Translations under genes and position numbers: made by a program
Origin: Psammoneis japonica
Taxonomy: Eukaryota
Reading direction: 5' to 3'
DNA: 64,000 nt
NCBI GenBank assembly: GCA_008632985.1
Contig: QPGO01000061.1
Coordinates: 124,001 to 188,000, forward strand
Notes under the pieces: model-generated
What the model was told of the DNA's origin: nothing
The model's input: the letters and a program-made list of their open reading frames with translations, nothing else
The model's database searches: none
Shown: positions 21,181 to 61,300 of the stretch, piece after piece
Layout: each line of letters starts with the position of its first letter
Numbering within the stretch: position 1 is the stretch's first letter

Positions 21181-21409
21181 CTCTTCCCTTCCATGATTCG
21201 AGTGTCGAGAATCATGCGGGACTCAAAAAATTTAAATTCCAATGGATGAGGATAGAAGGGAAACCCAAATGTTGGGGAGAAAACCCTTGACCTCAGGTGT
21301 GATGTGGTACAACGCGACGCATGTTCAATCGTTCTGTCACATGAGGTGTGCGTTGGACCGCAAGCGCACCGTTGGCGTGCACTTGAACGACAGGATGTGG
21401 ACCGTGAGC

Positions 21410-24400
21410 TCATGGCTTGAGCTTGGTTGGGTCGACAGCCTTGAGCAGAACTTGTCCGCCAACTTGAAAATCGCAGGATCGGCGTTCAGCGTTGGCTCGA
21501 CGGAGATTCGCATTGATGATCGCTTGTCGGTGTTCTTGAATGGCAGCAAGATTGGCTGGGACCGGTGAGTCGAGAATCATGTCACGTTGAAAAACCATGG
21601 CACCGGGTGAAATCTTAAGAGCACGAGAAACCGCACATCGCATTGCATGCATGGCGGTTGCCAATGCATTGTCCACTGGTTGATTGGCCTGCTCAACATT
21701 CTGTGGAGGACAAACATGAAGCAAAGTGCGCAAGACATTTCCAACAGTTTGATGCATGCGCTCGCATGCCGCATTGGCTTGTGGATTTCGCGACGCAGTC
21801 GGAGCGTCTTCCACTCCTGCTCGTTGCAATGACAATTGAAAGTCCTCTCCAATGAATTCTCCACCATTGTCATGGATGCACCGGTTGGGACGAGGACAAC
21901 GAGACAACCAACAATTTTCAAATTGTTGAGCAATGTGAGATGAGGTTTTGTTGTCGATGCGAATGAGTTCAGTCACATTCGAAACGGTGTCAACACAAGT
22001 CAAAGCGTTGAACTCGATTTCATGGTTTTGAATTTCAATCTTCCAGGGACCGATGAGATCAACCGCAACTTCCGTCCATGGCAACAAAGGCGCTTCTCGT
22101 TCAGGCAGGTCCCCACATCCAGGGCCTAAAGTTTTCAAACGTTGACAATCAGCACAATGAAATCTTTCACAGGATTGACGAAGGGCAGGATGACAGAAAT
22201 GTGCGCCAACAGTGGAATGCATTCGGTGCACTCCTGCATGTCCCAAAATCCCATGATGCCATCGTATGATGTCATGCAGCAACGCCGTTGGAACACAAAT
22301 TTTCCACACAGTCGGAGGATCATTCGGTCGAGCACGATGACAAATTACAGGACGCTGATTCACACATTCCACAACGAAGCGTTCTGGATGTTGTTGTCGC
22401 ACATTGTTCAGCTCCACGTCGATGAATTGGTGTTCTTGAATTCGTTGCATGGTTGCAGGGTTTTGCATTTCCTCGAGAGAAGGACAGTTCAAAAATGATT
22501 CACACAATTCGGGGTCGTCCACGACAGAAGAGTAAAATGGAGATGGTTCTTCACGACGACAGGAAAAATGAGACACACGGTTTTGGTCGTCCAGTTCTTC
22601 TTCACGCGGCAGCATGGCAGGGTTGATCGCCTTAAAATCAATCAGCTTGCCCTTGTTAGGAGCACACTTCCCTTCCGCAGGAGGGTCCATGCGCGGCAAT
22701 CTTGAAAAACAATCCGCTGAGAGATTGTCTTTGCCATCAACGTGTTCGAAAGTTGGGGCAAAATCTTCCAAGAAGAGTCGCCACCTGAGAACTCGTTGAG
22801 AATTGAGCGCACGAAAGGTGAGATTTTTATGATCCGTAAAAACAGTGCAGTCAGCTCCAAACAACATGCTTCGAAATTCTTTGAAACACATCACCACCGC
22901 CAATGATTCTTTTTCAATCGTAGAGCAGTTCTGTTGTGCTGTGCTGAGTTTCCGGGACCAGCAAGCCACTGGTTTCCCGTCTTGCACAATTGCGGCCCCC
23001 ATCTGACAGTCCGAAGAGTCAGCACAAATGTGGAATGGCTTGTTGTGATTCGGGTAGACCCAAAGGGTGTCGTCCAGCATCAAGGTTTTCACATCTTCAA
23101 AGGCTCGTTGACATTCAGGGGTCCATTCCAACTTGCTCTTGCCTGTCAACTTCGTGAGTGGAGCGAGCACGTGTGAGCGACGAGGCCACATGTTGCGACA
23201 ACAAGTTGCCGCACCGATAAACGATCGTAGTTCCGTCACAGTTTTAGGTGGTTGCATTCGTAGCACCGCTTCCACTTTCTTCTTCCACGGTCGGACTCCT
23301 GCAGGCGTGAGCCAATGGCCCAAAAAATCCGTCTCTTGGACACACCATTCGCACTTGAGTGGGTTAATTTTCAGGTTGTTCTCTTCTAGTCTGGACAACA
23401 GCTCATCGAGTCGATGCACATGAGCATCAAACAAATCATCAAATTGAGCAATGTCATCGATGTAAGTTTCAACATCGATTCCTTTTGCCACTTTTTCAAT
23501 GATGGCTTGAGCAACATCGGGAGAGGTTTTCAAACCCATGGCCAATCGACAATGTCGAAATTTCCCAAACGGAGCAACAATGGCACACAAATCCTTGGAT
23601 TCTTCGTCAAGCTCGACATGACAATAAAACACAGTGAGGTCCAACTTGGTCAAGCACTTGCATCCCGAGCGTCGGTGAACAACGTCTTGAATGATCGGCA
23701 GAGGATGGACCTTTCGTTTGAGCACCTTGTTCAACTCTCGAAAATCAGATGCCCATCGAACTCGTCCATCCTTTTTGGGAGTTACAAAAGTTCCGGCTGC
23801 CCATTCAGTTGGTCCCACTGGTTCCAGTGCGCCAATGTTGCATGGATGTTGTGGTTCTTTCTTAAAAACGGCTTCATCCCTCTTGGACACTTCGCAAGCC
23901 TTAGAATGGAAGGGAACAGCGTTGGGATCAACTTCCAAGTGAACAGTCTCATGCGGATGTTCACCAAGCGTTCCATCAAAGAGGGTTTCATGCTTTTCAA
24001 GCACAGCCTGCAGCTCATCACGTTGTTCTTGAGTCAAGTGAGTTTGAGCTTGCGCCACTTTCGCGGGTGACACTTTCTCGTATTTGGCGTCCATCATAAA
24101 AGATTGTCCGAAGGCTTCCTCATCGTCTTCGTCCTCTCCGTCGTCTTCCAGTGCATCCAACCAATTCTGAACTGAGTTCCAATGATTGGATTGCTTCATT
24201 GGGATCGACGTTTCCAACCACTTTGTCATTCCAAATCGAAAATCAAGCACGATTCCGGCTTTCGACAAAAAGTCTTGTCCCAAAATTAAATCACACTTGC
24301 ATGGGGCATCAAAAACTTGAGCCGCAATGCCATCGACTTGTTTTGACTTGTCAAATTCTGGCAAGATCAAGTCCTTCATAACAACGTGTCGGGAGGATTC

Positions 24401-24472
24401 ATGTCGTCCGGCTGCCGTCTGAAAGCTCAACCATCCTTCATCGTTCATGGTTGGATTCGCTCCCTTCGGCAA
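21410..24472 (-). CDS. pol: Gypsy Pol (end of protease, RT, RNase H, integrase); probably non-functional
   Basis: KKDGRVRWASDFRELN, ETYIDD, RNase H ADSSD/TDHKNL, integrase H..H..C..C, VAVDLIGP, DNGGEF and NPQANAACER. The protease DSG motif (VPLDSGG) is in the upstream frame 24476-24775. Confidence 0.93.
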   Translation of the reverse strand: MPKGANPTMNDEGWLSFQTAAGRHESSRHVVMKDLILPEFDKSKQVDGIAAQVFDAPCKCDLILGQDFLSKAGIVLDFRFGMTKWLETSIPMKQSNHWNSVQNWLDALEDDGEDEDDEEAFGQSFMMDAKYEKVSPAKVAQAQTHLTQEQRDELQAVLEKHETLFDGTLGEHPHETVHLEVDPNAVPFHSKACEVSKRDEAVFKKEPQHPCNIGALEPVGPTEWAAGTFVTPKKDGRVRWASDFRELNKVLKRKVHPLPIIQDVVHRRSGCKCLTKLDLTVFYCHVELDEESKDLCAIVAPFGKFRHCRLAMGLKTSPDVAQAIIEKVAKGIDVETYIDDIAQFDDLFDAHVHRLDELLSRLEENNLKINPLKCEWCVQETDFLGHWLTPAGVRPWKKKVEAVLRMQPPKTVTELRSFIGAATCCRNMWPRRSHVLAPLTKLTGKSKLEWTPECQRAFEDVKTLMLDDTLWVYPNHNKPFHICADSSDCQMGAAIVQDGKPVACWSRKLSTAQQNCSTIEKESLAVVMCFKEFRSMLFGADCTVFTDHKNLTFRALNSQRVLRWRLFLEDFAPTFEHVDGKDNLSADCFSRLPRMDPPAEGKCAPNKGKLIDFKAINPAMLPREEELDDQNRVSHFSCRREEPSPFYSSVVDDPELCESFLNCPSLEEMQNPATMQRIQEHQFIDVELNNVRQQHPERFVVECVNQRPVICHRARPNDPPTVWKICVPTALLHDIIRWHHGILGHAGVHRMHSTVGAHFCHPALRQSCERFHCADCQRLKTLGPGCGDLPEREAPLLPWTEVAVDLIGPWKIEIQNHEIEFNALTCVDTVSNVTELIRIDNKTSSHIAQQFENCWLSRCPRPNRCIHDNGGEFIGEDFQLSLQRAGVEDAPTASRNPQANAACERMHQTVGNVLRTLLHVCPPQNVEQANQPVDNALATAMHAMRCAVSRALKISPGAMVFQRDMILDSPVPANLAAIQEHRQAIINANLRRANAERRSCDFQVGGQVLLKAVDPTKLKP

Positions 24473-24787
24473 AACTCAAGAATGAACAAGAGTGTTGGTG
24501 CCTCCTGAATCCAATGGCACTCGCAACACTCGCTTGCTCTCTTGATTTTGAATGGTGCGCACCGCCATCAACGTCGTTGGCACCACATTCAATGGTTTGG
24601 GAGTCGCAGTTTTAGGGGTTGGCACAGCGCACTCCAAAACGCCGCCCAATTTCTCTTCATTCACAGCATGAGATTCCATCAGGTCTCCCACATTGTCATC
24701 AACATTAAAACACACATTTTCTTCACGATCACGCGAAACATAAAAAGATTGAGCGACACGCTCTGACTCAGGCACTTCCGTCCCTTG

Positions 24788-26000
24788 TCAATTACACCAA
24801 CTTCGTTGACCTTGATGGGTGCGACCATTCTGATCGCATCCATTTCCACCTCGCATCTCACGAGGCCCTCCTTGATCAAAATGGTGCGACTCCATTTGCC
24901 AGCCACCAGGAGGAGCTGCTCCAGCCGGATTTCCACAGCCTTGGGCATCACCGTTGGCTTGGGTGCCATTTTGATTTTGGTGATGGGATCCATTCCCTTG
25001 AGAATTCTGGGAGTCATCACAATTGCCGTAACCTCGGCCTCCATGTCCTCCTTGATTGCCACAATTGCCACGTCCTCGACCTTGGAAGTTGCCACGACCA
25101 CCTCGACCTTGGGGTCCTCCACCTTGGCAGTTTCCTCGGCCTCCACCACGACCTCCGCTATGACCACCACGGTCGGACCTCGGTCGACAGTTTTGGCTTT
25201 CTGGATTCAAAATGCAGTCCTTCCACTTGTGGTCGTGATTCGCATGCACCGGGCATCTAGATTCTGGATCCGTTCCACCACCATTGCCACGAGAGCATCT
25301 TGAAGCTTGAGACGAAGCACTGTTGCTTTTCCTCTTCTTGTCCTGCTTCTTGTTGCCACTCTTGTCAGCAAAAGATTTCTCGTTGTTCCTGCAACCAATG
25401 ATCTCAGCGAGAGCATCGTTCGCCATCACTCGTCCTGCTCGAGTGTGCATCTCACGCCACGGATGAGGGAAGCCATCGAATGTCATCTTTTTCTTCTGAG
25501 CTTCGTTGACTTGAGGAGCATTTCCTGGAAGTTTGTTGGAGCACCGAATCAAGGTTTCCATGCGATCTGCATGTGCCTGCACTTCAGATTTGAGTGGTTT
25601 TTTCAAAGTTGGCAAACATTCAATCATCGCATCACGCGCTTCATTGTCACAATGAGACAAGTAAAAACGATTGATTTCCTGATCAAAACGCTCGACGGTT
25701 TTATCGGCATCGTCAATTGCATTGGTCAAGTTCGCCCACTTGTCCTCTGCAGCATCCGCAAGCACTTCCTCGAAATTTTCGAACAACTCCTCGCCAGCAG
25801 TGCACTCCAATTTCACAGCAATTTTCCGAAAACGATCCTCAACGAATGACAATGCTTCAACACCATGAGTGCCATCAAAACGCGGACACTTTTTTGTACG
25901 AGCACTGCGTCATCATGCGATTGGGTCAATTTCACTTCCTCCAAGTCAGAATGCTCAAATTCAGCTTCACAGCTGATGCAAGGCTCCTTCAACGATTCAC
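24788..26000 (-). CDS. gag: Gypsy Gag (frameshifted near 25850)
   Basis: Upstream of pol, with zinc knuckle CPVHANHDHKWKDC and an RGG-rich tail. Confidence 0.8.
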
Positions 26001-26241
26001 TCATCATGAAAAAGGGAATGCAATTGTTCAACAGTCCTCTCCAGGGACTCTGCCTTTGACTCCAAATGATGCACTCGGCTCGCCAAATTCTGTTCGTGTC
26101 GTTTGCGTTGTTGCACTTGTTTCTGGTGCTCAATGGCCCAAACTGCTGCTCTTGCGCGCAGTTCTCTTTTCTCACGTTTGGTCAATTTGTTTGCATTGTT
26201 CCCAGTCTCCATCCAGTTCTTTGAATCGACTGCAATTACAG

Positions 26242-26403
26242 CGCAAGGTCTAACGAGATAAAGACTTCAGTGATGACAAAATTGTGAGCGAAAGACGGAG
26301 GTGACGAGGGTCGCTTTCAGCGAAGCCCGTTGCAACGGCTTCCGTCATGTCCAATGGGTTCATTGACACCATGCATCAGAAAAATGAGGTGCAAGACACT
26401 GCA
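26242..26403 (-). repeat. 5' LTR of Gypsy element
   Basis: Aligns to 21019-21180 and is followed by TSD CTGGA. Confidence 0.9.
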
Positions 26404-35986: not shown

Positions 35987-36383
35987 GACGTGTTCCAATC
36001 CCAGGTGGGACTCCTTGTGACATTGGGCCCGCACAATTCTACGTGCAAGCTCTGTGTCAAAATTGTCAATCAACAAAAACACACATGATCACCAACAGAA
36101 AAAGAGGCAATTTTACGAACGCATCTCCTCCTTCACACTCAGAGTGCATGAACAACAGTTTGCATGGGCACATTCCACAGACATTGAAGAACACACCCAG
36201 TGCATTTTCATTGTCACAAATGTTGAAAATAGAAAGCCTTTGGCTTCACAAAATGGGAAGCATGAAACAATTTCGTAGAATGTCACACGTGGCCATCTAC
36301 GTGCGCAACATGCGGCACGATCCAAAAAACTGTTGATGTCACAGTTCAGCACTGCGAGGTCCCACCCAGAGCTGGAACGCGTC
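35987..36383 (-). mobile_element. MITE family B
   Basis: TIRs gacgtgttcca / ctggaacgcgtc; 4 bp TSD AGGC; splits the copia integrase. Confidence 0.9.
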
Positions 36384-37226: not shown

Positions 37227-37619
37227 GACGCGTTCCAGGTCTAGGTGGGACCTCGCACTGCTGAACTGTGACATCGATAGTTTTTTGAGTCTCGTCGTAT
37301 GTCGCGCACGTAGATTTCTACGTGATTTTTTCGATATTTTGTGTCATTTTACGGTACATTTATTGAGCGATCCGTCCAACAACTTTTGACATTTTTTGTT
37401 ACAGCGCGATTCTATAATGTCTTAAGAATCGCGTAGGGCAGGCGAAGTTGCAAAAACGTCGAGTGGTAAGAGGCATAATTGTACCACAAACTTGGCCGTT
37501 TATTTGATGTTGAAGATAAATGTGTCCTCCATTAATTAAATTCTCGTACTACGGAGCTCGCACGTAGAATTCTACGGGCCCAATGTCACACGGAGTCCCA
37601 CCTAGGGCTGGAACGCGTC
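37227..37619 (+). mobile_element. MITE family B (young, TpA-rich)
   Basis: Perfect 12 bp TIRs gacgcgttccag / ctggaacgcgtc; 4 bp TSD CACG; inserted just upstream of the copia protease motif. Confidence 0.93.
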
Positions 37620-46349: not shown

Positions 46350-48800
46350 TTTTGTTGAACTGTAGAATGTCCTGTTGTCCCTCGCGTTGTGTCCTCGAGG
46401 CAGGCCGGTGCGCACTTAGCGTCTGAAATGCGCGAAATCCGGTCGGTTTCCGAAGACAAGGCTTCTGGATCTTGAAGATAGAAGGAGGTTTCTACCGCAG
46501 CATCTACGTGCCTCATTGGCACTTCTCCATTGACTGATGGCCACTCTGTCATCTGTTTAGAGAAGACAGTGTCAATGCCTTGTGTCTCCAGAATGTCACG
46601 TCCAACAATCATGTCGCACTTGCCCAACTTTCCGTTGTGTGCGTGGACGGCATGTTTAAGTTCTGCAGTTTCGGATAATTCTGGCAACCGAAATTTAACG
46701 GTGCAGTCGTTGGACGCACTGAACGAGCCTGCTGCCGCAGCCCAGTTTGTCTCAGCCGTTGAATGGCTTCGCAGACGTTTGCAGCATCGACTGTCGAGTA
46801 GAGCACTGCTGGCGCCACTGTCCAGCAGTGCCTTGATGGTTTGAGTCTTGCCCTTGCCATGTTTGAGCATTCACAGCTGTGAACAAGATTGGAACAAGAT
46901 GAGTCTTTTTAACTCGTTTGCGAGATTGGCCTACAACACGTGTACGATGGCAACTCAGTTGTTCATTTGTGCATTCATCCAATGTGTCAAAACCACCTGC
47001 ATCGTGTCGGCCCCCTTCTCAGGTGTCCGAATCTTCGGAACCACTCAAGTTGAGGTCGCGGAAGTGATTGAGCTCCTGACGTGTTCCAGTCCCAGGTGAC
47101 GCACAAAACGACAATCGGATTTTGAACATGGTTTATGTGTGTTTTAGTGCACACAGCATCAAAAATGCTCAGATGGATTGACTTTCACAGGCTTCTAGAG
47201 CATGCACATTTAAACAGTTTTTTGAGGGGTGCTCAAATCTTCATGGGATGTGTGTCACAAACTTCCTCAGCAGACTCAATGCTGATTGCACGTCAGCAGA
47301 TTTACACTGAGATTTTTTTGTAGGCAGAAAACCTGCCAAGTGGCATCGTAGAAAGACACATTTAGTCAACATCCAAACAACGGCAATGTTTTGCCGAAAA
47401 TCATCCGTTGTGTTACGAATCTTTTGATGCAATGAAAAACATGGACAGCACAATGACAATGACATTGCAACACTCACACGAGTCTTGTCAGTGTTGCAAA
47501 ACATTTGCATTTGTGCAAATCCATGCTTTTGGTGGTGAAAGTTTGATCGTAAGTTAGGGACCGCGCAAAAATCGCGCAAATGTTGTTTTTGTGCACGATT
47601 TGGTTCACGTGCGGCTGGAACACGTCTCCTCCTCGCGTGCCTTGCGCTTTTTCTGAGCGTTGGCAAAGAACTCCTCGACCTTTGATCCGATGAGAGCATT
47701 GATGTCTTCCTCATTCCGAGGTTTTGCATTGGGTTTGCTGCCTCCATCATTGGAATGTCCAGTCTTGACACGTTTCACGCGGTGCTTGAGCTGACGGCAA
47801 TCCTCCGCATGATGTCCACAGTTGGTCCCGTGCAGCATGCACGACTTCTGAGTGTTCCGTTGGGTCGTGATCAACGACTCAGGATTGTCCGTTCTACGTC
47901 CCCGCTTGCGTGGAACCTCAGCATGTTGGTCCAGGTTACCTTTGGCAAGCTCGACCTGCTCGATGCGCTCGCAGAACTGCACAAATTCGGCGATGGCATG
48001 CGCCAACGGGTCAAAATTCTGTAGCGTCATGAACTTCTGCCATGCGTTCGGCACACCGTGCTCGAACACATCGCACAGTTCGTCATTGGGCAATGGTGCC
48101 GGTGCTTCTCCATCCTCCGTCACGGGTGGAAACTGAGAGATGTGGCCGTTAATTTCAACAGCCCTTGCGACGCAGTCACGAGCAGAAACCTCTGCGGGCT
48201 TGCACATGAAGCGCCTCAGACAGCGCTTCTGCAACAGTGACGCCCTGTGTGGGAAGATACTTTCCTTTAGCTTCGCGACGCATGCTGCGCACGTGGCGTT
48301 GGTTTGGGATGCCTGCTTGTCAGCGGCATTGTTGGATGATGTCAGAGCATTGCCCTGCAGCAGGTCACGCATGAGGGCAAATTTTGCTGGCCCGGTTGTC
48401 ATGTTTTGTCCTTCGTGCACGCAATCCACGTTGCGTGGAAAGATCAGGAGTGTCTCGCATGTAGCCGCAGAAAGGTGCGGATTCATGGTCGTTTTAAGAT
48501 TTGTCGGTCCCACCAACATTTCGTAGTTTCGTTTCTGCAGATTTTGTCACCTCGCACAACATGCGGGAGTGACATCACTGTGCCCCATGCATGCACTGGG
48601 CGCTGAAAAGAAGATGTGTTACGACCTTGTCGTTGTGAAAATTGTGAGCCAGTTTAGAGTGGAGAAAGTGGGATCGTGCGAATGGGGAATCTTGCCAATT
48701 CCCTGTTCGTTCGCATTTGGATCGCATCAAATCGATCGTGCGTTCGCATTGTGGATCGTGCGAATCAAGCCATCACGCGCTGTGCATGAGTGATGTCATC
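46350..48800 (-). mobile_element. Truncated Ty3/Gypsy element (5' LTR end, gag, protease)
   Basis: Gag ORF 47605-48519 with CMLHGTNCGHHAEDC; protease ALLDSGASS...KCDMIVGRD in 46202-46870; putative LTR end TGTTA at 48617. Confidence 0.8.
47078..47626 (+). mobile_element. MITE family A, TpA-depleted copy
   Basis: 12 bp TIRs gacgtgttccag / ctggaacacgtc; 4 bp TSD TCCT; inserted at the end of Gypsy gag; inverted copy at 58946-59500. Confidence 0.95.
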
Positions 48801-50760
48801 GTGTGGAATCACGCTGCCATCGTGGGCCAGACGACGGGCCAGTGTGCTTCACACGGATGCTCTCTCAGCATCCTTCTGGAATTGCCTGAGACCTGGAGCC
48901 ACGCCCTCCTGTGGTCGTGCTTCCCAGGTGCGTGTTAACAACACTGCGTTGCCACGTGCAAGAGGCTTGTGCACGGTCTCGCCGTGTTGTCCAGCAGCGA
49001 GGCACACTGCACGTGGTGACTGGGGCAATTGCGAATGCGACAAGAACTGCCTTCATGCAGAATGCCCATGTCTGGAGTGCCTTCCGGACTGGTCATTCCT
49101 CGGACTCGAGATCCTCGATGATTGAGGCCAGAGCATTGGCGCAGGGTGCTTTCTTGTTGGAGTCTTTTGTTCTGCTTTCGGATTCTTGAGTGCTTTGCGA
49201 AGTCGACAACCTTTGTCTCCCGGATCATCAGGTGAGTGAGCCACCCAAGCAGAGTGGTGCTTGCACCAACAATGGTCTCGTCCCTTCTGACTCTTGTGAT
49301 GACACTTGTGCCCGTTGACAGTCTTCGCAGGGTCGCTGTCCTTTGGCGGAGTCTTCTTCCAGGCTTCATCCTGTTTCTTGGCGTGCTTCGGGTTCTTGCT
49401 TTTGTTCTTGGAGTTCTGCTTGCCACCACCTCCCTTGGACTTGCTGGGACCACTCTTGAGAGCCTTGGAGAGCTTGAGGTTGTAATCCTTGATGGTCTCC
49501 ACTTCCGTGGTGAGTGCAACAATCCTTTCCTGCTCAGGAGAGAGTGCTCCCCACTTGTCTGCTCGATCGAGGTTCGTGCACTTGTTGAGTGCTAGCTGCA
49601 TGACTTGTTCCGGGTTGCAGTCCTCACCATCATCATGCTTCTGTTCCATGTCAGCCGTGCACTTGACAAATGCTTGATTGCTGGCTGCTGTGTGTCCTTT
49701 GAACAGGTTGACCACAAGGTCATCGCAGTCTTCTCCCCTGGCTCTGAGTCCGTCATGGTTGAGTTTGACGCACTTGTTGAACTCCTCGATGTTCGAGTTG
49801 CAGGTCGACATGTGTGAGTCAAGGCTGGACAAGTTCTCGCGGAAGCAGTTTGCGGTTGAGCGAGTGTCCACGATGGCCTTCTGAGCAGGCAGTTTAAAGA
49901 ACAGTGCACTGACTTGTGCTCCGTTGATCTTGTGTTGCTTGCTTTCGGCGATGATCTTGTCTCCAGCTTCCACAGTTAGGGTCTGAGAGATTGCCTCAGC
50001 CATTTGGACTTGGTTCTGGGCTTGCCTTGACTGAGCAGCCATGCAGGCAGTGGCGTGGTCGCGCACGTTTTGTGCAGCAAGTCTGCCACACTTGGTGATC
50101 AAGTCTTGATCGATTCCATTGCTGTCGGGGATCGATGTGATGTTTCCCGTTCCTGACTTCCATCCTGACTCAGAATTTGTTGAGACCTTCAGAGTCTCCA
50201 TTGAACTCGTGAGGCAGTGGAGCTGTAGCAGCACTCCAGAGCTTGAGACCTTGCAAGACGCCGCAGTCCATCCAGTCATCTGGACGGTGCTGACCAGGGG
50301 TCAATGCGAATGTGGGTCCTGCAGCAGGTGCTGCAGGAGGAACCGGAGGCACTGGAGGTGCTGGAGGTGCACCTCCTCCACCACCGCCTCCACCACCACC
50401 ACCTCCTGGAGGGACTGGTGGAACCGGTGGAACTGGTGGTGTTGGCATGGGTGCGCCTGCTGGAGTGGCAGCAGGGGCAGCAGCGGGAGCTGCAGCAGGA
50501 GCTGAAGCAGGAGCTCCAGTTGCAGCAGACGAGGTGCGGGTGGCCACCATTGTTGGGTGGTTTTGGGTCTCGATCAACAGCTGGCTTGAAACCGAAGTTG
50601 CAAAGAAGCAGGTCACAGAGGAAGCGTGTGGGATTCTACCTGGGATGCAGGTCCCATCTGTAGAATGTGCTGCTGACAATCAGTGCAAGGCACTAAAAGC
50701 CAGCAAAACAGCAATGAGTTGTCTCACCAACTCGTGCTTGGTTGAAACCATGAGCTGAAA
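48800..50760 (-). mobile_element. CoDi-type Ty1/copia gag relic
   Basis: ORFs 50170-50679 and 49053-50279 (frameshifted): TFALTPGQ...GLKLWSAATAPL...VVNLFKGH...WCKHHSAWVAHSPDD..C. Confidence 0.65.
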
Positions 50761-51299
50761 CTAATCTAAAAGTGAGTCTCTCATTTTGTGACAATGCCAC
50801 ATCAGAAAACAGACATTCTTCGAATGTCACTCATGCAGAATGTGCACTGAGAGTCATGGCGCAAGTTCGTCACTTGAACTGTCCTTTCCGATGTCCAACT
50901 CAGCCGCGTGGAAATTCCAAGAAGATTGGACATCCTGAGATGTCCACAGTCATGCTAAATTGTCACAACCTGAAAACCAGGACATGGAGTTGCTTGTTTG
51001 TGAACACTCTCTTCATCTTGTTTCTCTTCTCCACAAATCTGGACCCACTTTTTCCCTCCTCTCACCTTCTTCTTGGCGGGCAACTTCTGTTGACAATTTA
51101 TCGTGGCAAGGCAGAGACGACAGAGTTTTGACAATGCACTCAGTTTCAAAAACAATGTGCACCACTGGGATCATTCCTTTTTGTGCCACGACTCAGCTTT
51201 TGCGTTTTTGGTTGGTTGATGCAAACGCGACTTGTCTGTTGTCGATCCCGTCTGACCGTGGCCACCTGAAAATTTTTCACCGCGAAATTTTTTTCTTTT

Positions 51300-52290
51300 T
51301 TTTCTCATGGAACAAATCCACCATGGCGACATCTCAAGCAGTTCCAATGGGCCGTTGCGGCCTCTCCATGAACCAATGTGGAACATTCTACAAGAACGGT
51401 GCTTCGTGCAGAATTGCCAAGAAGATGGAGGTCACTGCTGTCTTCTCTGTCAACTCAAAACACCTGGTGACTGTCCTTCAGAGCGGAAACTTGCCAAACA
51501 TGCCAAAGTTTCCCGCGGCTTTGCAAAGAAAGTCATCAATGAAATGGAACAAGGGGCATCAACAGATCCCTTGAAAACAAAGAGGCGGTCTGGGGGTGTT
51601 GGATCTCGGCTCTTTGTGGAGACAGATGAAGTTGTTTCATTGAAGTTGTGATGTGAACGACCAACTCGCAGCCTCCAAAGCTGTCGCAGGCAGCTTTTTT
51701 GATGCACAGGAATGTTGGAGTCGGAAATGATGATCTGTCATTGGTTTCTACATTGGTTTGAAATCAAGGGTGGAATGCGGAAGTCAAATCTTGTCCCTTT
51801 TGACAAATTTGCTCCCGAGAACATTGTTCGTACGATGGAACACAAGAGTGTCATTGCCGAAATGGATCCTTGGCGGATCAAGTTTGGTGATGAGAAGCAC
51901 TTGATGGGTGAAGAGCTTGTTGATCGCAAAGTGCGTCATTGTCCAATGACTGGCATTGTTGAGGACATTGTCATTGATCCAGATTTCCAAAATGAGCACA
52001 CAATCATTGGAATCTGTGGAATCGACAAGGAGGTGCCCGTGTTTGATTGCTGCCTGCATGATGGAACCAACAATGCTGACACCTTCTCTTCCTACATTGA
52101 GTTGTGTGCAGCAAGGGGATGTCTCCGATCGGAGATGTGTTGGTGCTCGATGGTGCTTTGATTCACCTCTGTCGCGAGTCGGAATCTCTCGATGAGTGGC
52201 TTTTCAATGAGTTTGGAATCTTGCTTCTATTCCCACCTGCTTGCTCCCCCAAGTTGAATCCCACAGAGAAAATGTGGCTTGCGCCAGCAC
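51300..52290 (+). mobile_element. IS630/Tc1-mariner-like DDE transposase relic
   Basis: KFGDEKH (first D), GDVLVLDGALIH (second D) and LFPPACSPKLNPTE (degenerate LPxYSPELNPIE), across frameshifts. Confidence 0.75.
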
Positions 52291-53043
52291 TCAGCAGCAA
52301 AGTGCAACACAAGGACAACCTTGTTGCAGTGGTCCGAGTCTCAAAATCAAAGTGACAGTCAAGAAAAGGAGGGGTCAAGCACAAAATGCAAAAAATGGCA
52401 CCTCAAAAATGTGGGTCTGCAACAATGGTGAGTGCTTGTCACTGCATGCACAGCAGACTTGTTCCAGACTCAGGTGGCGTGCTCATGCCCCTTTTCGCAC
52501 AAAAATCAAACATTTTGTGCTTCATTCAACATCAAACAAATTTAACTTAAATGCTGACACTGATGGCTTTTAATTAAACTTGACAGATGAATTCCAAGCC
52601 AACCAACAGCCAAAACAGCCGTGGCTTTCAGCACCCATGACGGCCGCTTTTTCAACCTCGTGGAACATTTGATGACATGACAAGGACCCCACAGCATTTT
52701 GCACAGTCCATGTGTCATCAATGAATGTGATGAAAATGCTTGTTGCAGGCTGCAGCACAGCACAAGCAGACAAATCTGTAAGCAACAACAAAAAATTGAG
52801 CCTCATTTCCTCACTCACAATTTGCCTTTGGGGGCAAGTGCTTTTCCACTGCTTGTGTGCATTTCCTCGACGAATGAAGGTTTCTTGAGGGAGCGAGCAT
52901 GCCGCCTAAACGAAATAGACTTTGCTGATGTGGCGATCATCCACACGATGATGAGCGCTAAAGACGATCTGCCGCTGCATCTTGTTTTACGTTGCGCTGT
53001 TCCTGCAAGTTGCCAGGTTCACAATTGCACTGTCGTAATCACC

Positions 53044-54015
53044 ATGGTGAAATATTTCTTTCCCTTTCTGAGCGCCGTTCTCGTTATTGCTGGCAGTACG
53101 AGCAAGAGTTCATCATCTGTTGTCGGCTTTGAACCTGCCGCATACAAAACACACAAATCTCTCGTTAGCTTGACGAGAAAGAATGTTGTTGGAGGGACCC
53201 AATCATTCAGTGGCTCTGCTATACTCAAATCGAATCGTCACTCTGATGAAAAGTCATCTTTGAGATTGTATTCAACTGCAGACAAAAGCAGTGGAGACGG
53301 CACTATATCCTCGAAAGAATTGGACGTGGATGCTCTTGTCAAGTACGGAGTTTCCATTGCTGTTCAAATGGGTCTCCTTTATGGTGTAACCAAGGGATTG
53401 GATCTCGGTCTGGGAGCAGCAGACGTGTCTCTTCCATTCCCAGCGGCGTTTGTACTCTTTTACGGTCTTTCTCTCAAATCAAGAGTCTTTAATCCTCTCG
53501 ACAATGAGCGTCCCAACATCCAAAAAGCCTCTCAAAACAAGGGATCCGCTGGATTCAAGGATCGTGTCATGCCATCCTTTACGCCGCCGGGTTTTATTTT
53601 TCCAATTGCTTGGATTCTTGTCAATGGCCCGCTTCGAGCCTATGCTTCCGCCCTTGTCTACAGTGCAACCGGAGCTTTGGCGAGTCCAGCCATTCTCGCC
53701 TTTTTGTTTCACTTGTCGGTGGGTGACGTTTGGAACACAATCAACAATACCGAACAACGATACGGAGCGTCGGCCACAACGGTTCTCGCCGTTTGGGCGT
53801 CGGCAGCCTATGCGGCATTCATGTACAGCCAAGTGGATCCACTGGCGGGCAAACTATTGGGAGGAACACTTGTTTGGTTGACGCTTGCTTCCTCTCTAGT
53901 GATTACCACCTGGCGGATCAATCCTGATGATGAAGGAAAGCTGGACACACTCTATCCTGCCCAAGGTGAAACCAAGACAGAGTTTGCATGGTTTAAGAAT
54001 AGCGCGGAAGACTAG
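53044..54015 (+). CDS. TspO/MBR-family membrane protein with a probable bipartite plastid-targeting presequence
   Basis: Start MVKYFFPFLSAVLVIAG...VVG-FEP (ASAFAP-like) followed by a Ser/Lys-rich transit peptide. TspO motif PSFTPPGFIFPIAW, WNTIN and several TM helices. Confidence 0.85.
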   Translation: MVKYFFPFLSAVLVIAGSTSKSSSSVVGFEPAAYKTHKSLVSLTRKNVVGGTQSFSGSAILKSNRHSDEKSSLRLYSTADKSSGDGTISSKELDVDALVKYGVSIAVQMGLLYGVTKGLDLGLGAADVSLPFPAAFVLFYGLSLKSRVFNPLDNERPNIQKASQNKGSAGFKDRVMPSFTPPGFIFPIAWILVNGPLRAYASALVYSATGALASPAILAFLFHLSVGDVWNTINNTEQRYGASATTVLAVWASAAYAAFMYSQVDPLAGKLLGGTLVWLTLASSLVITTWRINPDDEGKLDTLYPAQGETKTEFAWFKNSAED

Positions 54016-54241
54016 AAACTTAAAAAAAGCTAAAAAGCAAGGTTTGATGCTAGCATATTCTAGACTTTGGCACGTTCTTTCGGTTCCCAGCACTAAAGCA
54101 TTATTGAAAAGGATTCTGATGGTTACTGTAATATCATTTTCTAGAGAACTATTGCCTCGGGGGGACTCATCCAGACGCAATCGTTGAACTATTGCCATGC
54201 GTCGCTCGTCGCTCTGCCATTCACCTTTTTTATTGTTTTTT

Positions 54242-54727
54242 TCAAAGAGAAGGTAAAGGCTGAACCAACACACATCCTTGTTCAACAATGATCCCTAATT
54301 CTTCTGCTCTGGATAATACATTTGGTGCATCCGCACCGGGTTGAATAAAACAGTATCGAATGTTCCTCTTTTTCATTTCTTCCAACACGGAGACACCCAC
54401 GCGTGGTGATACAATCAGATTGACAGCATCAATTTCTACATTGGCAGGAATATCCGAAAGCTGTCTGTACAAGTTATTATTTTCGCCGGTTTTTCGGAGA
54501 TAAGGTGAAACTCGGTACACGGTACGACCTGATTGCTCCAACCGATTCGCCACGGCAAACGCCGGTTTTGCAGTGTTGGTCACGTCTCCTACCACCGCCC
54601 ATCGCGACAAACCTTTGACACCAAGAACGGGACCCGATGATGACATTGTAAGAGATGATGAATGACCAACAAAGAGTGATAACAGTGCCAGCAGCACGAC
54701 AACTGCCGCCATTGATGAGGTCGACAT
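54242..54727 (-). CDS. CoA-binding domain protein (YccU-like) with signal peptide
   Basis: WAVVG...KPAFAVANRL...VYRVSP...LSDIP...IDAVNL...FIQPGA...GCVLV pattern; hydrophobic N-terminus. Confidence 0.82.
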   Translation of the reverse strand: MSTSSMAAVVVLLALLSLFVGHSSSLTMSSSGPVLGVKGLSRWAVVGDVTNTAKPAFAVANRLEQSGRTVYRVSPYLRKTGENNNLYRQLSDIPANVEIDAVNLIVSPRVGVSVLEEMKKRNIRYCFIQPGADAPNVLSRAEELGIIVEQGCVLVQPLPSL

Positions 54728-55369
54728 CGTCAGACTGTAGACTGTCCATCTTCATCTGCGCGCGATACGTGGAGAGCAATCTTTCATTCGTGAGCCGCGA
54801 CCACGCAGGGTGACCGCATCTGGCCAAAACGCACTGATTTTGTCTGATTCATCTTTCAGCACAAATTCTTCACAAGGTTCTTTGACCACAGCAGCTGGTT
54901 GGAGGTGTCCCTCATTTTGAGCGTGCTTCACTCACAGTCACCAAGCACAAGGAGAGGATCACTTTTGGGTGGTTAAACTCTTGGCAAAATCGGCGCTCTC
55001 AAGAGCATCACACAGGAGAGGGCAGGAGAGATGAGTCGCACAGCTGGCCCCAGACAACAGACATAAAAGAATGATGAGAGAGAGGCCACCCCAGCTCTCC
55101 TCTTTCTTTTTTGGCAGATGATGCGCAGCAATGGGGTCAGCTGTGGCAACCCAAAATGGTGGGTCAACAGTGCTGAAACATTGTTTTTCTGCTCAGTTGC
55201 TTGTGTGCATTTTCGCGCAGCAGCTGCCCACACAAGCTGCGTTTGGCACACCTGCCTGCTCTTGAAGGTTGCATCACTTGATTGATTGGTGACCCAGCCA
55301 TCTGTGTGCAACCTCTTTCTGCATCTCTTGTCCTCTCTTGCACACAATGCTGTCAGAGTGCATGCTCTG

Positions 55370-58300
55370 GTCATCAGAGGTCCGTTTCCACCATGAATTG
55401 TCGCGTGATCAGACCAGTTGACAATGTTGCAGATGGCATGTGTGAGTGTCATCACATGAATTCACTTGTGATGATTCATTGCCATTTAACATGAGAATCA
55501 CTTGAAAACAAACAAATGTCCATGCAAACAAAAAATGTCTGGCAATGTCAAAAAACAGACGTCAATCCCAACAAGTGAGGTGCAACTCAACAAGTTCATG
55601 ACTCCAAACAAGTTGCTCAGCGGGATTTCACTTTGCTTGTTGTTGCCAACTGAGTGATGACCAAATGCAGTGGTGGGATTTGTTTTCAATTTTTGCTGTC
55701 AAAGTGGACTTGCATGTCAAAACAATTGTTTTCCATTGTCCCATCCATTTGTTGCATGTTTGCTGCTCTGCAATCGATTGTCAACAGTTGTGAATGCAAG
55801 CAATCGCTGCCAAGTCAATCTTGACTAAACTGCCACCAACTCCAGTTCACAGATTTTAGCACAGTTGACCTGATGGTCATCTTTGCCATCTGAGCCATCC
55901 TGTGCTTCTTCTGCCACCTGTTGATCTTGCTTGGTTGCAACAGCTCTGCAGAGCTGTTCCCACTGGCCGAGGCACCCCCACTTGCAACATCTTGCTTGAT
56001 CTCCAGGACCATTTAAACAAAGAACTTGTTGGTCTTTGGCAACCACCCTTTGCTCTTCCTTTTTATCTTGCACTTCCTTGGTCCTGTGTTTCTGTCTGTG
56101 TCTTTTGGCTTTGCTGCCGTGAAATGCTTGAGTGTCCTGACAACCTTTCTCTTCTTGCTGGATGCACTTGCATTGCTTTGGCTGTCAATGAGTGCTTTTG
56201 CAGCCTTGGCCAGACCTGTCACTCATGCTGCAGTCTTTGGCTCATCTCTGATTTTCTTGACCATTGCTTCCCATTTTGCAATGGATTCTTCCCTTGTGTT
56301 CTCAAACTTCTGTTTCAGTTCTTGCACCGACAAACCTTCCTCCTCCAACGGCTCTTCTGGTGGATCTTTCCAGAGCAGCACAAACATGCTCAGGTCCTGG
56401 TTGTCCTTCTCCTTGGCTGTCACGAGGTCTGGCATGATGGTCTTGCACAAGTCATTGCTTCCCTCTTTGTCCATCATGCCTCCATTGTCAAAGTCCTGTC
56501 CTTGTTTTGGCTCTTGCAGTTGGCATGCCATGCACCACAGTTGTTCTCTCAAGGAGCATGTGGGCAAACACCTTGGTGTGTGCTGTGCCCATCCTCTTGT
56601 CCTTGGCAATGCACTCTTTCCAGTGTGCACCTCTGACAATTGGGTGCAGCATGCAGTCACAGAACTCTGTCTGCAAAGCTGTGTTTCCCAAGCAATCTTG
56701 GAATCTTTCTGCGGATGGCAAGACTCAATTGTTGTTGCCATTGCAGCATGCACAAAGAGCTTCATTCATGGCAGGGAAAGCAAGTGACAACACTGTCAGC
56801 AATTGCAATGACTGTTCTTGTTGCACCCTCCACACTTGCTGTGGAAATTGTCCTGCTGTGCCTGGCGCACATTCGACCTCTCAATTGCTGGCCACTCCTG
56901 ACACATCCTTTTTTGTTTCATCACAAGCCACAGGCAGCACAGGCATGTTGTTTGCTCTGGCTTGGGTGAATCCTGCAGCATCCTGTCCATCATCTTGGGG
57001 CTGCAATTCTGTTCACAATCCCTGCAGAGCATGTCTGTTTCCTCCATTTCCTTGTCATTGAACATCAGTGTGGCATTGAGGAACAATGTTTCCTTGACAT
57101 GCTTTCTCACCTTTTCCATGTCCTGCATCACCTTGGCATGATCCGCCATCCAATCAGTTGAGGTTGTCTGCCACTCCACAATGTCCCCATCATTCTCTGC
57201 TGCTGCCGCCGTGTTTTTTTTTTTGGTGTGTGCTGAAGCACACTGAAGTGAGGTGATGGGTGAGGTTGAGTCTTGCAAATGATGTGCACACAACAGTTGT
57301 CTTTCTTCCTTCAATGTGTTTTTTTGCTTGCCTGAATGGGGTCTTTTCCCCACATTTTTTTATTTGGCTGGACATCTGCATTCAAATTTAAACAGATCCT
57401 CTCTCTCTCCAATTTAAAATGTTTCATCATCAATGTCTGAACATGTGTTTGCCATGATGTCCAATGTCTTTTTACAGCTGACTCTCTAATGGCTGTTGCC
57501 GCCATTCCAAGTGACTCCCACTCAAACATCAATCAAGTCTTCACTCAACAACTTGATTCAAAAATCAATCTGACACCTGCACACCAACAAATGGTTGTGA
57601 ACAAGAAAAAAATTGTCTCACCTGGCTTCTGCCAATGCCGGCAAAATGCACCCTGTCCAGTGTGTCTGCCACAACTCAATTGAGCCAGCTGTTTTTGTTT
57701 TCCAAGAACAGTGAGTTGTTTGTCAGTTGTCCGTTTCTGCCTCTGAGAAAGACAAAGCAGCAAATCCCAGCACGGACTTCAATGCAGACAATGACCCACC
57801 CAGCTTCCCACCCGCAGAAGACCCGGAGCTTTTTCCCACACCCAATGAGAAAGCAGAGGAGGAGGAGGACAAATGTGATGACAATTCCTCACATTGCAAA
57901 ATGTTCCCTGGCACTCTTGCTGCATCTTTGTCCTCTCCTCTGGATGAGACATCTGAAGAATCCACCCTCCCCCCAGATCCACCCACTGTCCCTCCCACCA
58001 CTGCCAACTTGGATCCCTTGCATGGGAAGGCACCTGATCCACCAACCTTTTCACTCACAGAGGAAGCTTTGCCAGAGCTGATCACTCCATGTGACAATTT
58101 TGGCGCCACTCGTCAACTTCACAGTCAGTTGCTCACCCTGTTGCAATGATTTTGCAAGAAGTGGAGTTTCAGTTGTTCCTGGTGTTGTGGGCGGGACTTG
58201 TTGGTGAAGAAACTCCACAAGAAGCTTTTCCTGCCCCAACCCGACACTTGCATCATTGGCAGATGGGAAGTCACTTGCCTCCTCATGCTGGACATGTTGA

Positions 58301-61300
58301 GAGATTTGCTCACCCACTCAATGTTCAATGACGAGCACAATGTCAATGTGAACAAGTCCATGCAGGCATGTTTCCACAAGCCACCAAACTTTTTGCTGGC
58401 AGAGGAAGCTTCACTGGAGCTGATCACATTGGGGGACAATTCTGTTGCCACTTGCAACCAGCACAATCTCAACATCAACAAGTCCCCACAGGCGCGTTTC
58501 CACAAGTTTGTTCCTGTTGACGACTGTGATCTCCGCATGATCATGTCCAACAAATGGTGCTCCAACACATGCGATGACCTCCCCAAGGACTTTGACTGCA
58601 AGAAAGACTTGCTCTTGCCAATTGGCTTGTGCGCTGATCAGACTGGGACTGATGCCTGTCAAGGGAGTCCCCTCAAACCCTGATTGTTTTGTGTTCTTCT
58701 TGCCAAGAGGCATGTGTGGGAGCGTGATTGTGCTTGGCGTCACCTCGGGTTCATGCCAAGCATGGACAAGGGTGAGGTCAGTTGCTCACTTGACAAGAAC
58801 GGCAACATGAGCAAAGATGGACAAGCAGTTGAGTCTTCTTCATCAAACATACAAGCTTGCCACGACATGTTGTCTTTTCTTTTGGAAGATTTGAAGGCAT
58901 TGCAGGCAGAGCCTCCAATCATGAAGGTAAAAGTGGGTGGTGTTTGACGTGTTCCAGCCGCACGTGAACCAAATCGTGCACAAAAACGACATTTGCGCGA
59001 TTTTTGCGCGGTCCCTAACTTACGATCGAACTTTCGCCACCAAAAGTATAGATTTATACAAATATAAATGTTTTGCAACACTAACAAGACTCGTGTGAGT
59101 GTTGCAATGTCATTGTTATTGTGCTATCTATGTTTTTCAGTGCGTTAAAAGATTCGTAACACAACGGATGATTTTCGGCGAAAATATTGCCGTTATTTGG
59201 ATGTTACCTAAATATATTTTTCTACGATGATACTTGGTAGGTTTTCTACCTACAAAGAAATCTCAGTATAAATCCACTGACGTACAATCAGTATTGAGTC
59301 TACTGAGGAAGTTTATGATACATGTCCTATGAGGATTTGAATACCACTCAAAAAACTATTTAAGTGTTCATACTCTAGAAGCCTATAAAAGTCAATCCGT
59401 CTAAGTATTTTTATTAAAATGCTATATACACTAAAATATACATAAATTATATTCAAAATCCGATTGTCGTTTTGTGCGTCACCTGGGACTGGAACACGTC
59501 GTTTGCCGGCTCATGCGCACCCTCCTTGTGCAAGGGCCAACATTCAGGGACCAGAAGTCACAAGACTTTGTTTGCAGATGGAAAGCAACCAATGGTGGAG
59601 GTGCCGCATTGCCTCTGCATGTGTTCTGCCAATGATGTTACAAACACCTCCCGCCCAACCAATGAGCTTGGTCTTTCTTTTTCTCTGGTCAATGTGAAGA
59701 TTGTGTCCCGTCTTGATCATTTTGCAAGGACAGTCCATTGGATGGCTGCCTCAAGAGGCAACAAAGGCTTGCAGCAGCTGTTCTTTTCCATCCGCACATG
59801 CACTGGCTGAGAAATGCCTTTGACGGTGTCAACTTTGGAAGCAATCCATGGGGTGTGTTGTGGCTGACAACCACCTTTGTTCCTGGGAAGCCGGTGGTGC
59901 AGAGAATGTTGTGCATCCCAAAAAAAAAGGTGGATCTGTTGGCCATGCAGGAATCATGTGATGGGGAGGATGTTGCAGTTCAAAATCTGCACCAGTTCTC
60001 TAACCCATTTAGAGTTGTGTCATGAAGCACCATCAGAGGAAACCAACAATCAAGGGAGCCAGACACACGGGTGCAACATCATCCAACATGAAGACCTGCT
60101 CTTCTTTCTTGGAGCATGTTCTTTGCCGCCATGCATTTTGTCACTGCTCGCACAGACTTCTGGGGCAGTGATGCACAAGGATCATGCCATGATTCACTTT
60201 GGGATGAAGCAAGTGGTTGGCCAGCACATGGACACCATCCCATGCTGTGGCAACAACTTGGCCGCAGACTTTGACATGGGAAAGGTTGAAGCCCAGAACC
60301 ACAAGGACTTTCATCATTCATTGCTTGGTGACAACATGCAATCATGCACATCAACGGGTGAGAGACTGTAGAAAACCAAAGCAAAGAAGATTTCCAAGAT
60401 GGTGCAGAAGTGCGGTGAGGCCACTTTCCTCCAACAGACTTGCAAACAAATTTGTGAAGCCCTTCTGGTGTGCGGAAGGTGTGTGGACAAGACAGCCATG
60501 CAGAAGTTGGGAGACAAAAGGTCACATCACGTGGTCTTGCAGATGATGCATCCTCTGTTGCCAATGAGGATGGAGAATCCAAGGTTGCCAGACGCGTGCC
60601 ATGCTTTTTCTTCTGGCACGATTGTTTTGACAATGTGTTGTCACTCAATTGACACGTCAACAAAAGCCCGACCAACATGGAAATGGGTGCACCATGCTGA
60701 GCTTTCCTGGGAGCCATCCAAGAACTGTGGCCAAACCAAACAAGGTTTCACACATGGAACAAAGCAAAACTTTCCAATGGTGACTGCCTCTGAGCTTGCC
60801 CAGAGCACTGCTCCAAAGAGGGCCCATGGTTTGGCTTGGCAGAAGTCAATTTTGACATGGACGATGCATCCAGCAAGCCACACCCTGCCCATGTTGTTGG
60901 TTTCTACAAGGAATCCAAAGGGTTTGCCAAGGCAATTGTTCACTCTGTTGACTGTGAGTTGGCATCTGCCTGGGCAACTGAGTCAGATTTCGGGAACACA
61001 AGATTGTTCACTCGTTGTGCACAAGAATTTTAATCATCCAGAAGACCGTTGATGTGGAACCTTTGCATTCATTTGATGTGGTGCGACATTTCCTGTTGCA
61101 CATCACAGCAATGCAAAGACCCACCCCCCAAGTGCACAACAAAAACCAGAGGAGGGAACACAGAGTGATGGTGGTCAAACCCCTCTTGGACTGGGCAAAG
61201 ATCTTTCATGCATGAATGGACCAGGGAAATGACATCAAGAGAGGACAGCGCTGAGGGCACTGACAAGTGCATCTTTCAGAGCGATTGCCATGCAGACAAT

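Follow-up and report, generated by a model that had tools for sequence, protein, structure and literature searches.

In the 64-kb window analysed here (64,000 nucleotides of contig QPGO01000061.1 of Psammoneis japonica), transposon-derived DNA has very probably undergone a directional, context-specific hypermutation in which TA dinucleotides were converted to CA or TG, with host genes and the short spacers between them being spared. Central to the analysis were two copies of one miniature inverted-repeat transposable element (MITE), designated copy 1 and copy 2, which a first-pass annotation of this DNA had described as the mutated and the ancestral-like state of the same element; their coordinates and those of the other features are given in Table 1. 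Our comparisons established the direction of the change, its occurrence at the DNA level, its action on both strands, its sequence motif and its restriction to mobile DNA. Over the whole window, the observed/expected ratios (o/e) of the dinucleotides TA, CG, CA and TG were 0.23, 0.60, 1.56 and 1.50, respectively.

A global alignment of copy 1 with the reverse complement of copy 2 comprised 555 columns, 488 of them identical, with 61 mismatches and 6 gap columns. With copy 1 as the start, 26 of the mismatches were C>T, 20 G>A, 9 T>C and 6 of other kinds; taking copy 2 as the start, T>C/A>G accounted for 46 of the 61. Copy 2 has 52 TA sites in the alignment, and in copy 1 these appeared as CA (24), TG (17) or TA (11), which means that 41 of 52 were lost, while all 11 TA of copy 1 were also TA in copy 2 (reverse cases, 0/11). 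At 5 sites CG in copy 2 corresponded to TG in copy 1, all 20 CG of copy 1 were CG in copy 2, two sites were reciprocal (CA in one copy and TG in the other), and about 11 mismatches remained. The pairwise alignment that had been proposed as a check therefore confirmed the original observation, both in its counts (about 40 TA sites, about 23 to CA and about 17 to TG, 5 CG to TG, 2 reciprocal sites and about 10 other differences) and in the claim that each TA left in copy 1 is also TA in copy 2. The 41:0 asymmetry in TA loss (binomial p = 9e-13) excludes chance as the source of this pattern. Among the 46 C>T/G>A differences, 41 create TA in copy 2, with 50% of the C and G of copy 1 lying within CA or TG, and the GC content rises from copy 2 to copy 1. 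By itself, the pair cannot separate a change of TA to CA/TG from a change of CA/TG to TA.

The assignment of both copies as MITEs was borne out by their structure. The same 12-bp terminal inverted repeat (TIR), GACGTGTTCCAG, was found at each end of copies 1 and 2, perfect 4-bp target site duplications (TSDs) surrounded both, an empty site for copy 2 was present in a paralogous repeat, and the elements are short (549 and 555 bp), non-coding and of high copy number. In the single public sequencing run containing this DNA (run X1), 1166 contigs aligned to the MITE stretch and the summed depth was 55,000-69,000 at the MITE ends versus 150-1400 in the flanks; although depth does not amount to a copy number, the abundance of the family is clear. 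No contigs of runs X2 and X3 aligned to the stretch, which does not count as evidence of absence. The host of copy 2 is an old 4.5-kb repeat poor in TA, with 53 TA inside the MITE and 2-4 TA per kb outside it, in agreement with the claim that the TA-rich copy sits inside an already depleted host. Copy 1 is nested in a retroelement-like stretch. A protein search for translated copies of the longest open reading frame (ORF) within copy 1 gave 2 candidates, none significant, and no autonomous partner for the MITE was found within the 64-kb window, the 4-bp TSD alone being insufficient for superfamily assignment.

Some further observations concern the MITE copies and their surroundings. Joints of X1 contigs were found inside copy 2 at 59088-59470, 59177-59462 and 59204-59462, and they point to shorter internal-deletion derivatives elsewhere in the genome. 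One X1 contig (depth 61.7) links 58943 to 59504 without the MITE and with one extra letter at the joint, which might represent an empty allele, the insertion being heterozygous, or else a further paralog of the old repeat. The stretch at 46202-51000 around copy 1 has a GC content of 0.52-0.54, is TA-poor with normal to moderate CpG, and contains a weak aspartyl-protease match (46202-46870) together with long ORFs without a Pfam hit; it is probably another decayed retroelement. A metagenome scan for both MITE ends by the TIR pattern returned 11 loci, which were discarded as chance hits because BLAST matched the pattern only (23-27 bp). The internal palindrome of the MITE was considered as an internal outgroup and dropped, its arms being only about 75% alike and too noisy.

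The direction from TA to CA or TG, with the TA-rich copy as the ancestral-like state, was supported by sequence tests independent of the MITE pair, namely the tyrosine codons of a Ty3/Gypsy element, the pair of long terminal repeats (LTRs) of that element, three-state sites, the symmetry of TIRs in a second MITE family, and a link to CpG. The polarity claimed by the first-pass annotation is thus upheld by the Gypsy Tyr codons, the reciprocal LTR sites, the three-state sites and the CpG link in two MITE pairs, and a preprint on another alga describes the same signature arising de novo.

The Gypsy element is flanked by 162-bp LTRs with TG...CA ends and a perfect 5-bp TSD, and the best named matches to its reverse transcriptase come from Cylindrotheca. 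Its pol frame of 1021 amino acids remains open despite the conversion of conserved Tyr to Cys or His. An alignment of the pol fragment with 120 homologues (45-64% identity) was examined, and a column was taken as conserved when the residue occurred in at least 70% of them. Of the 13 conserved Tyr columns only 3 retained Tyr, the others having Cys (6), His (3) or Phe (1), while the other conserved residues were retained at 73-100% (C 2/2, H 4/4, D 13/13, R 15/15, P 16/17, K 12/13, W 8/9, G 13/15, L 23/28, F 8/11). The Tyr content of the Gypsy pol is 0.7% versus 4.4% in the homologues, and its Cys content is 4.5% versus 1.7%. Alignments with Ty3 showed the same Tyr loss at known motifs, such as YY to CC in one-letter amino acid code. 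Given that TAY>TGY (Y, pyrimidine) is an A>G change of the coding strand and TAY>CAY a T>C change, both strands were hit. The presence of both TGY and CAY products, together with the fact that a non-retroid MITE was affected, agrees with the earlier proposal of a DNA-level process acting on both strands, and for the same two reasons ordinary RNA editing of a retro-copy is excluded.

The two LTRs of this element, which were identical when it inserted, now agree at 143 of 163 positions and differ at 20. The informative sites comprised 5 reciprocal CA/TG, 2 TA/TG, 0 TA/TA, 3 CG/CA and 6 CG/CG sites, with 5 others. By a hand estimate from these counts, double CpG decay predicts about 0.1 reciprocal sites; since the CpG of the LTRs is mostly intact and its decay gives so few, TA is the source of the reciprocal sites. 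The counts further yield estimates of about 12 original TA, about 0.9 of them lost per LTR, and of about 2.4 changes per site at TA, about 0.18 at CpG and about 0.02 elsewhere. CpG was preserved in both LTRs at 6 of 9 sites and TA at 0 of about 12. It is the mostly intact CpG that makes the LTR pair a valid reciprocal-site test. Reciprocal CA/TG sites between the old 4-kb repeats (100 of 227 double differences) were also considered as proof of TA and rejected as ambiguous, as exhausted CpG yields the same pattern.

Sites with three states were found within the MITE family itself. At site 59194, copy 2 has TA and copy 1 has TG, with CA making up 62% of the family depth; at site 59343, copy 2 has TA and copy 1 has CA, with TG making up 68%. 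The partial copy at 13559-13644, used as a third taxon, showed the product opposite to that of copy 1 (CA versus TG) at 3 of 9 TA sites of copy 2. The 2 reciprocal CA/TG sites between copies 1 and 2 show that copy 2 has also lost a few TA. In the second MITE family, one TIR site reads TA at either end of the TA-rich copy, and in the TA-poor copy the two ends differ, one having CA and the other TG. The TA-rich copy is also the CpG-richer one in both MITE pairs (26 versus 20 and 30 versus 14), as had been noted for the first; a C>T mutator would make the TA-rich copy CpG-poorer, the opposite of what both pairs show.

The members of the second MITE family share the TIR start GACG[C/T]GTTCCA and 4-bp TSDs, and the first MITE family has the same TIR start. 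The interiors of the two full members are unrelated save for about 60 and about 100 bp at the ends, and a TIR fragment of this family lies at 20176-20239.

The window consists of two compartments, depleted transposon-derived DNA on the one hand and spared host genes and spacers on the other (composition in Table 1). TA o/e was below 0.15 in 75 of the 128 500-bp bins, about 60% of the window. The boundary can be sharp: the last 500 bp of the LTR element contain 3 TA and the adjoining 500 bp contain 21. The best named matches of the DEAD-box helicase, one of the intronless host genes, are diatoms (38-49% identity), and the cluster of the top hit includes Asterionellopsis glacialis; judged by such protein matches, the host of the process seems to be diatom-like.

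Comparison of depleted with TA-rich bins gave changes of -36.5 TA, -28.9 CG and +60.7 CA+TG per kb. The CA/TG excess is explained by these losses, as those of TA and CG together balance the gain.

The loss of TA depended on the neighbouring bases (R, purine). Within the MITE pair it amounted to 19/19 at RTAY, 14/17 at RTAR, 4/7 at YTAY and 3/8 at YTAR (RTAY versus YTAR, Fisher p = 0.0007), and when the changes were scored as A>G, the edited fraction by 3' neighbour was 21/41 for T, 10/21 for C, 6/21 for A and 3/19 for G. The 150 TA surviving in the 75 depleted bins comprised 6 RTAY, 38 RTAR, 37 YTAY and 69 YTAR, compared with 217, 184, 179 and 109, respectively, of the 689 TA in the 34 TA-rich bins. 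The products match the motif, with YTGY+RCAR at +23 per kb and YCAY+RTGR at +10 per kb. Decay therefore follows the wider motif 5'-TAY-3', which is RTA on the opposite strand. ADAR favours a 3' G; the TAY preference rather resembles the U-A-C of the tRNA anticodon loop.

Given that TA is self-complementary, one activity suffices to generate both products: A>G at the T[A] of the top strand would yield TG, and its counterpart on the bottom strand would yield CA. As estimated from the LTR counts and the MITE pair, the rate at TA is roughly 100-fold that of other sites and about 10-fold that of CpG decay, and conversion is fastest where the target A precedes a pyrimidine. In this reading the window contains a decay series, from copy 2 with unmutated composition through copy 1 with about 80% of TA lost to the old repeats with about 95% of TA and most CpG lost. 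If the direction is right, the chemistry might be enzymatic adenine deamination (A to inosine, read as G) by a nucleic-acid deaminase serving genome defence, an assignment drawn by analogy to which we give a little less than even chances. The 5' T before the edited A expected of an adenine deaminase is found here in the TA specificity; a domain search of the window's ORFs (64 kb) found no deaminase domain and no candidate enzyme, which counts against that assignment. The way in which elements are selected for mutation is likewise only an inference.

The same direction and targeting could also arise by a chemistry other than adenine deamination, which we regard as unlikely but a serious competitor. 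In one variant, the T in R-T-A would possibly be modified (e.g., oxidised to 5-hydroxymethyluracil or beyond) and then be replaced by C through faulty copying or repair; in another, biased T:G mismatch repair or gene conversion would possibly always restore C:G in the TA context, for which very-short-patch repair in enterobacteria is a model. In sequence alone, A>G at T[A]Y looks the same as T>C at the R[T]A of the opposite strand, and the lack of an enzyme among the window ORFs is also in favour of such variants. A repair bias, however, is bounded by the frequency of mismatches and is hard to reconcile with a roughly 100-fold higher rate at TA, and the authors who described the closest known system, in Bigelowiella natans, favour deamination in their preprint, with an ADAT2-like protein put forward as the enzyme without a test (Mettrop et al., bioRxiv 10.64898/2026.01.13.699255).

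According to that preprint, 231 of 302 nuclear mutations in mutation-accumulation lines of B. natans fell in giant-virus and virophage insertions, 230 of these 231 being A>G/T>C and all of these 230 being stated to be on TpA, at rates about 1000-fold over background and in some lines only; coding sequences poor in TpA showed an enrichment of reverse transcriptase and DDE endonuclease domains (bioRxiv 10.64898/2026.01.13.699255). As far as the preprint describes it, the two systems share changes that are nearly all A>G/T>C on TpA, with TpG or CpA resulting according to strand, a restriction to foreign or mobile DNA with the remaining genome ordinary, and TpA depletion accompanied by CpA+TpG enrichment. 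The process in the window is thus of the same kind as the B. natans TpA hypermutation, in a seemingly different lineage and far more pervasive. B. natans is a chlorarachniophyte (Rhizaria), whereas the best named protein matches of the window are diatoms, and no B. natans protein matched closely. The targets measured in the preprint were giant-virus and virophage insertions, with 124 depleted clusters genome-wide, and those in the window are MITEs, LTR elements and old repeats. De novo rates were measured directly in B. natans, while our estimates come from sequence comparison. The main text of the preprint gives no wider sequence context and makes no mention of diatoms; the TAY motif comes from this window only. 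A literature search for a diatom report of the TA to CA/TG signature found none, and only the B. natans preprint was relevant.

A genome defence of this type has so far been reported only once, in an unrelated alga. More tentatively still than the deamination chemistry, diatom-like algae may possess a natural DNA adenine base editor, an ADAT2/TadA-like deaminase acting at transposons and converting T-A-Y to T-G-Y on either strand, which would have left most non-genic DNA TA-free and CA/TG-rich and which would have a common origin with the Bigelowiella system; if so, this would be an old genome defence of the Stramenopiles-Alveolata-Rhizaria (SAR) supergroup.

Several points weigh against the direction and the motif proposed here. 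The CpG asymmetry of the MITE pair is only 5:0 (p = 0.06), and the 3'-pyrimidine preference was derived from one 64-kb window. A further objection comes from a pile-up of the MITE family, in which depth was weighted by k-mer abundance and the listing covered 40 of 210 variable places. Among the listed places were 7 TA sites of copy 2, where CA or TG made up 62, 65, 66, 68, 70, 86 and 99% of the family depth, and since these states dominate at the listed sites, the majority consensus is not TA-rich. The site with 99% CA, 59328, is most likely a private C>T at CpA in copy 2. Furthermore, copy 2 departs from the family majority at at least 6 non-TA sites, and copy 1 matches the majority at each of them; copy 2 is no pristine recent copy, and the two copies belong to different sub-lineages. 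For the MITE itself, the polarity of the changes follows from parsimony and by analogy to the Gypsy element.

A CA/TG majority is nevertheless expected under pervasive decay with partly decayed masters still amplifying, and because pervasive decay itself predicts such a majority, the three-state test is preferable to the consensus test. At 59157 and 59252, TA is retained in both window copies though the family majority is CA/TG, and at 2 of the 7 listed sites copy 1 bears the product opposite to the family majority. The variable places by kind relative to copy 2 (whole stretch, flanks included) were 72 T>C, 51 A>G, 20 C>T and 21 G>A. A comparison of the majority product with the TAY rule at the 7 listed sites was uninformative, with 3 sites fitting, 2 not fitting and 2 neutral. 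The description of copy 2 as younger and ancestral-like is thus supported in its second part only: the polarity tests favour an ancestral-like state, but with at least 6 non-TA departures from the majority copy 2 need not be younger. Copy 2 may derive from a non-targeted lineage rather than from a recent insertion. The first-pass annotation had also named a family consensus of CA/TG as the sign that repeat-induced point mutation (RIP) acted on the TA-rich copy; a CA/TG majority was indeed found at the 7 listed sites, but RIP does not follow from it, pervasive decay predicting the same.

A RIP-like process, in which C>T at CpA/TpG made the TA-rich copy from a TA-poor ancestor, is in our view very improbable. 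It would draw on the depth-weighted majority just described, including 59328, and on the composition of copy 2 (TpA/ApT 0.96; (CpA+TpG)/(ApC+GpT) 0.90), which passes the thresholds of the fungal RIP indices. The TA o/e of copy 2, however, is unbiased at 0.92 and shows no excess, in each of the two MITE pairs the copy that would have been mutated is CpG-richer than the one that would be intact, T>C/A>G changes are required by the three-state and reciprocal sites regardless, and the sole process with proven polarity in the window, seen in the Gypsy Tyr codons and LTRs, runs in the opposite direction. A flank-class test under the RIP view was not significant (p = 0.10). Fungal RIP resembles the window process as a dinucleotide-specific transition hypermutation that disables repeats and leaves a two-compartment genome. 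It differs in that its C>T at CpA makes TA and lowers GC, whereas the window loses TA and its GC rises, and in requiring duplication and a sexual cycle in fungal hosts, whereas the best named protein matches here are diatoms. Repeats under RIP gain TA and lose CA/TG, but those of the window are TA-poor, with a TA o/e of 0.05 and a CA+TG o/e of 1.8-1.9. The process in the window is not fungal RIP.

APOBEC3 (C>U on DNA) and ADAR (A>I on double-stranded RNA) are likewise enzyme-driven hypermutation systems directed, in animals, against mobile or foreign nucleic acid. A U ahead of the edited A is preferred by ADAR, according to the Discussion of the preprint (bioRxiv 10.64898/2026.01.13.699255), which is a further resemblance. 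APOBEC differs in yielding C>T. ADAR acts on RNA and reaches DNA only via retro-copies, whereas in the window a non-retroid MITE was affected, both strands were hit and the preferred 3' base is a pyrimidine. Decay of CpG by methylation and deamination also feeds CA/TG and is present in the old repeats (CpG o/e 0.14-0.21), but it is slower here, as seen in the Gypsy pol with a CpG o/e of 0.92 and a TA o/e of 0.13.

Signal-based basecallers miscall modified adenine, and one could suppose that a sequencer of this type read heavily modified bases at TA in silenced DNA as TG or CA, in which case the copies would differ in modification rather than in sequence. The platform and library type of run X1 are not on record, which leaves some room for such an artefact, but we consider it hardly credible. 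The X1 contigs contain 76% of sampled 31-mers from 52001-62000, and the run, with 657,387 records, 140.7 Mb and a depth of 26-90 among the 8 contigs listed, resembles an accurate short-read run. The old repeats also show indels and 19% divergence, the TA-rich copy 2 sits within the most depleted DNA, and the preprint describes the same signature in B. natans from Illumina reads (bioRxiv 10.64898/2026.01.13.699255).

Most genomes mildly under-represent TA, and the host genes here have a TA o/e of 0.41-0.53. Even so, selection against TA in transposons (through stop codons, TATA, poly(A) signals or a TA-cutting nuclease) can be given next to no weight as a substitute for mutation, for it is in decayed repeats, dead and non-coding, that depletion reaches its maximum (TA o/e 0.05), conserved pol Tyr codons were destroyed, TA was lost independently in the two LTRs of one insertion, and its loss is matched one for one by CA/TG gain.

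If TA-directed hypermutation is indeed what has shaped this window, TpA-directed hypermutation would be no peculiarity of one chlorarachniophyte, and it would represent a second major eukaryotic route of mutating invaders to death, beside fungal RIP and animal APOBEC/ADAR, as well as the main force shaping the non-coding genome here. A high-copy MITE family with members at every stage of decay would provide a natural time series for rate, motif and targeting, while the TAY motif would narrow the search for the enzyme, and base editing would have a practical interest in a DNA adenine deaminase of natural origin. For annotation the process would be a hazard, with dead transposons keeping long ORFs and consensus-based reconstruction of ancestral repeats being misled.

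Table 1 Features of the 64-kb window and composition of its sequence classes (positions are those of the window)
Feature	Position	Strand	Details
MITE copy 1, decayed state	47078..47626	+	549 bp; 11 TA (o/e 0.24), 20 CG, GC 0.43
TSD of MITE copy 1, TCCT	left 47074..47077, right 47627..47630	+	read from the sequence
MITE copy 2, ancestral-like state	58946..59500	-	555 bp; 53 TA (o/e 0.92), 26 CG (o/e 1.47), GC 0.36
TSD of MITE copy 2, AAAC on minus strand	59501..59504 and 58942..58945	-	read from the sequence
Empty site AAAC for MITE copy 2	14243..14246	+	in paralogous old-repeat copy; 13800-14246 = 59915-59501, 14239-14747 = 58949-58457
Partial third MITE family member	13559..13644	+	5' end only, TA fully decayed; served as third taxon
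Second MITE family, TA-poor member	35987..36383	+	TA 5, CG 14, TSD AGGC
Second MITE family, TA-rich member	37227..37619	-	TA 26, CG 30, TSD CACG
Ty3/Gypsy LTR retrotransposon	21019..26403	-	LTRs 21019-21180 and 26242-26403, TSD CTGGA, pol ORF 21410-24475
Old repeat copy A	13800..17749	+	TA o/e ~0.06, CpG ~0.18; paralog of 55372-59915
Old repeat copy B, host of MITE copy 2	55372..59915	-	paralog of 13800-17749
Intronless host genes (DEAD-box helicase, GT7, enoyl-CoA hydratase, TspO, sulfotransferase)			TA o/e 0.41-0.53, CpG ~1, CA+TG 1.16-1.32
Short spacers between host genes			TA o/e 0.55-0.91, CpG ~1, CA+TG 1.08-1.29
Gypsy pol ORF			TA o/e 0.13, CpG 0.92, CA+TG 1.41
Old repeats			TA o/e 0.05-0.06, CpG 0.14-0.21, CA+TG 1.8-1.9
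TA-rich MITEs (copy 2, 37227-37619)			TA o/e 0.9, CpG 1.5, CA+TG 0.94-1.08

The 64-kb window contains 79 stop-to-stop ORFs of at least 150 amino acids, many of them overlapping on both strands. Long ORFs persist in dead transposons because the loss of TA removes TAA and TAG stops, and the majority of the 79 are not genes. The ORF of 693 amino acids at 914-2995 (minus strand) has a weak DUF4116 match, with a TA o/e of 0.06-0.17 and a CpG o/e of 0.8-0.9; in this intermediate state, which is like that of the Gypsy element, it may be mobile or foreign rather than a host gene. Inside the old 4.5-kb repeat, the stretch 15714-16319 (plus strand) has a weak DEAD/DEAH helicase match (E = 6e-4) and may be a remnant of a helicase-bearing transposon. 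A single composite element spanning 13559-26524 was ruled out, as the flanking 4-mers mismatch. A scaffold gap of 152 N (19940-20091) lies within TA-depleted repeat DNA. Next to the Gypsy element, 120 TA-poor bp at 26404-26524 end in the TIR-like sequence CTGCAACACGTC (26513-26524), with TA-normal DNA directly beyond; the Gypsy element may have inserted into or beside another TIR element at this place.

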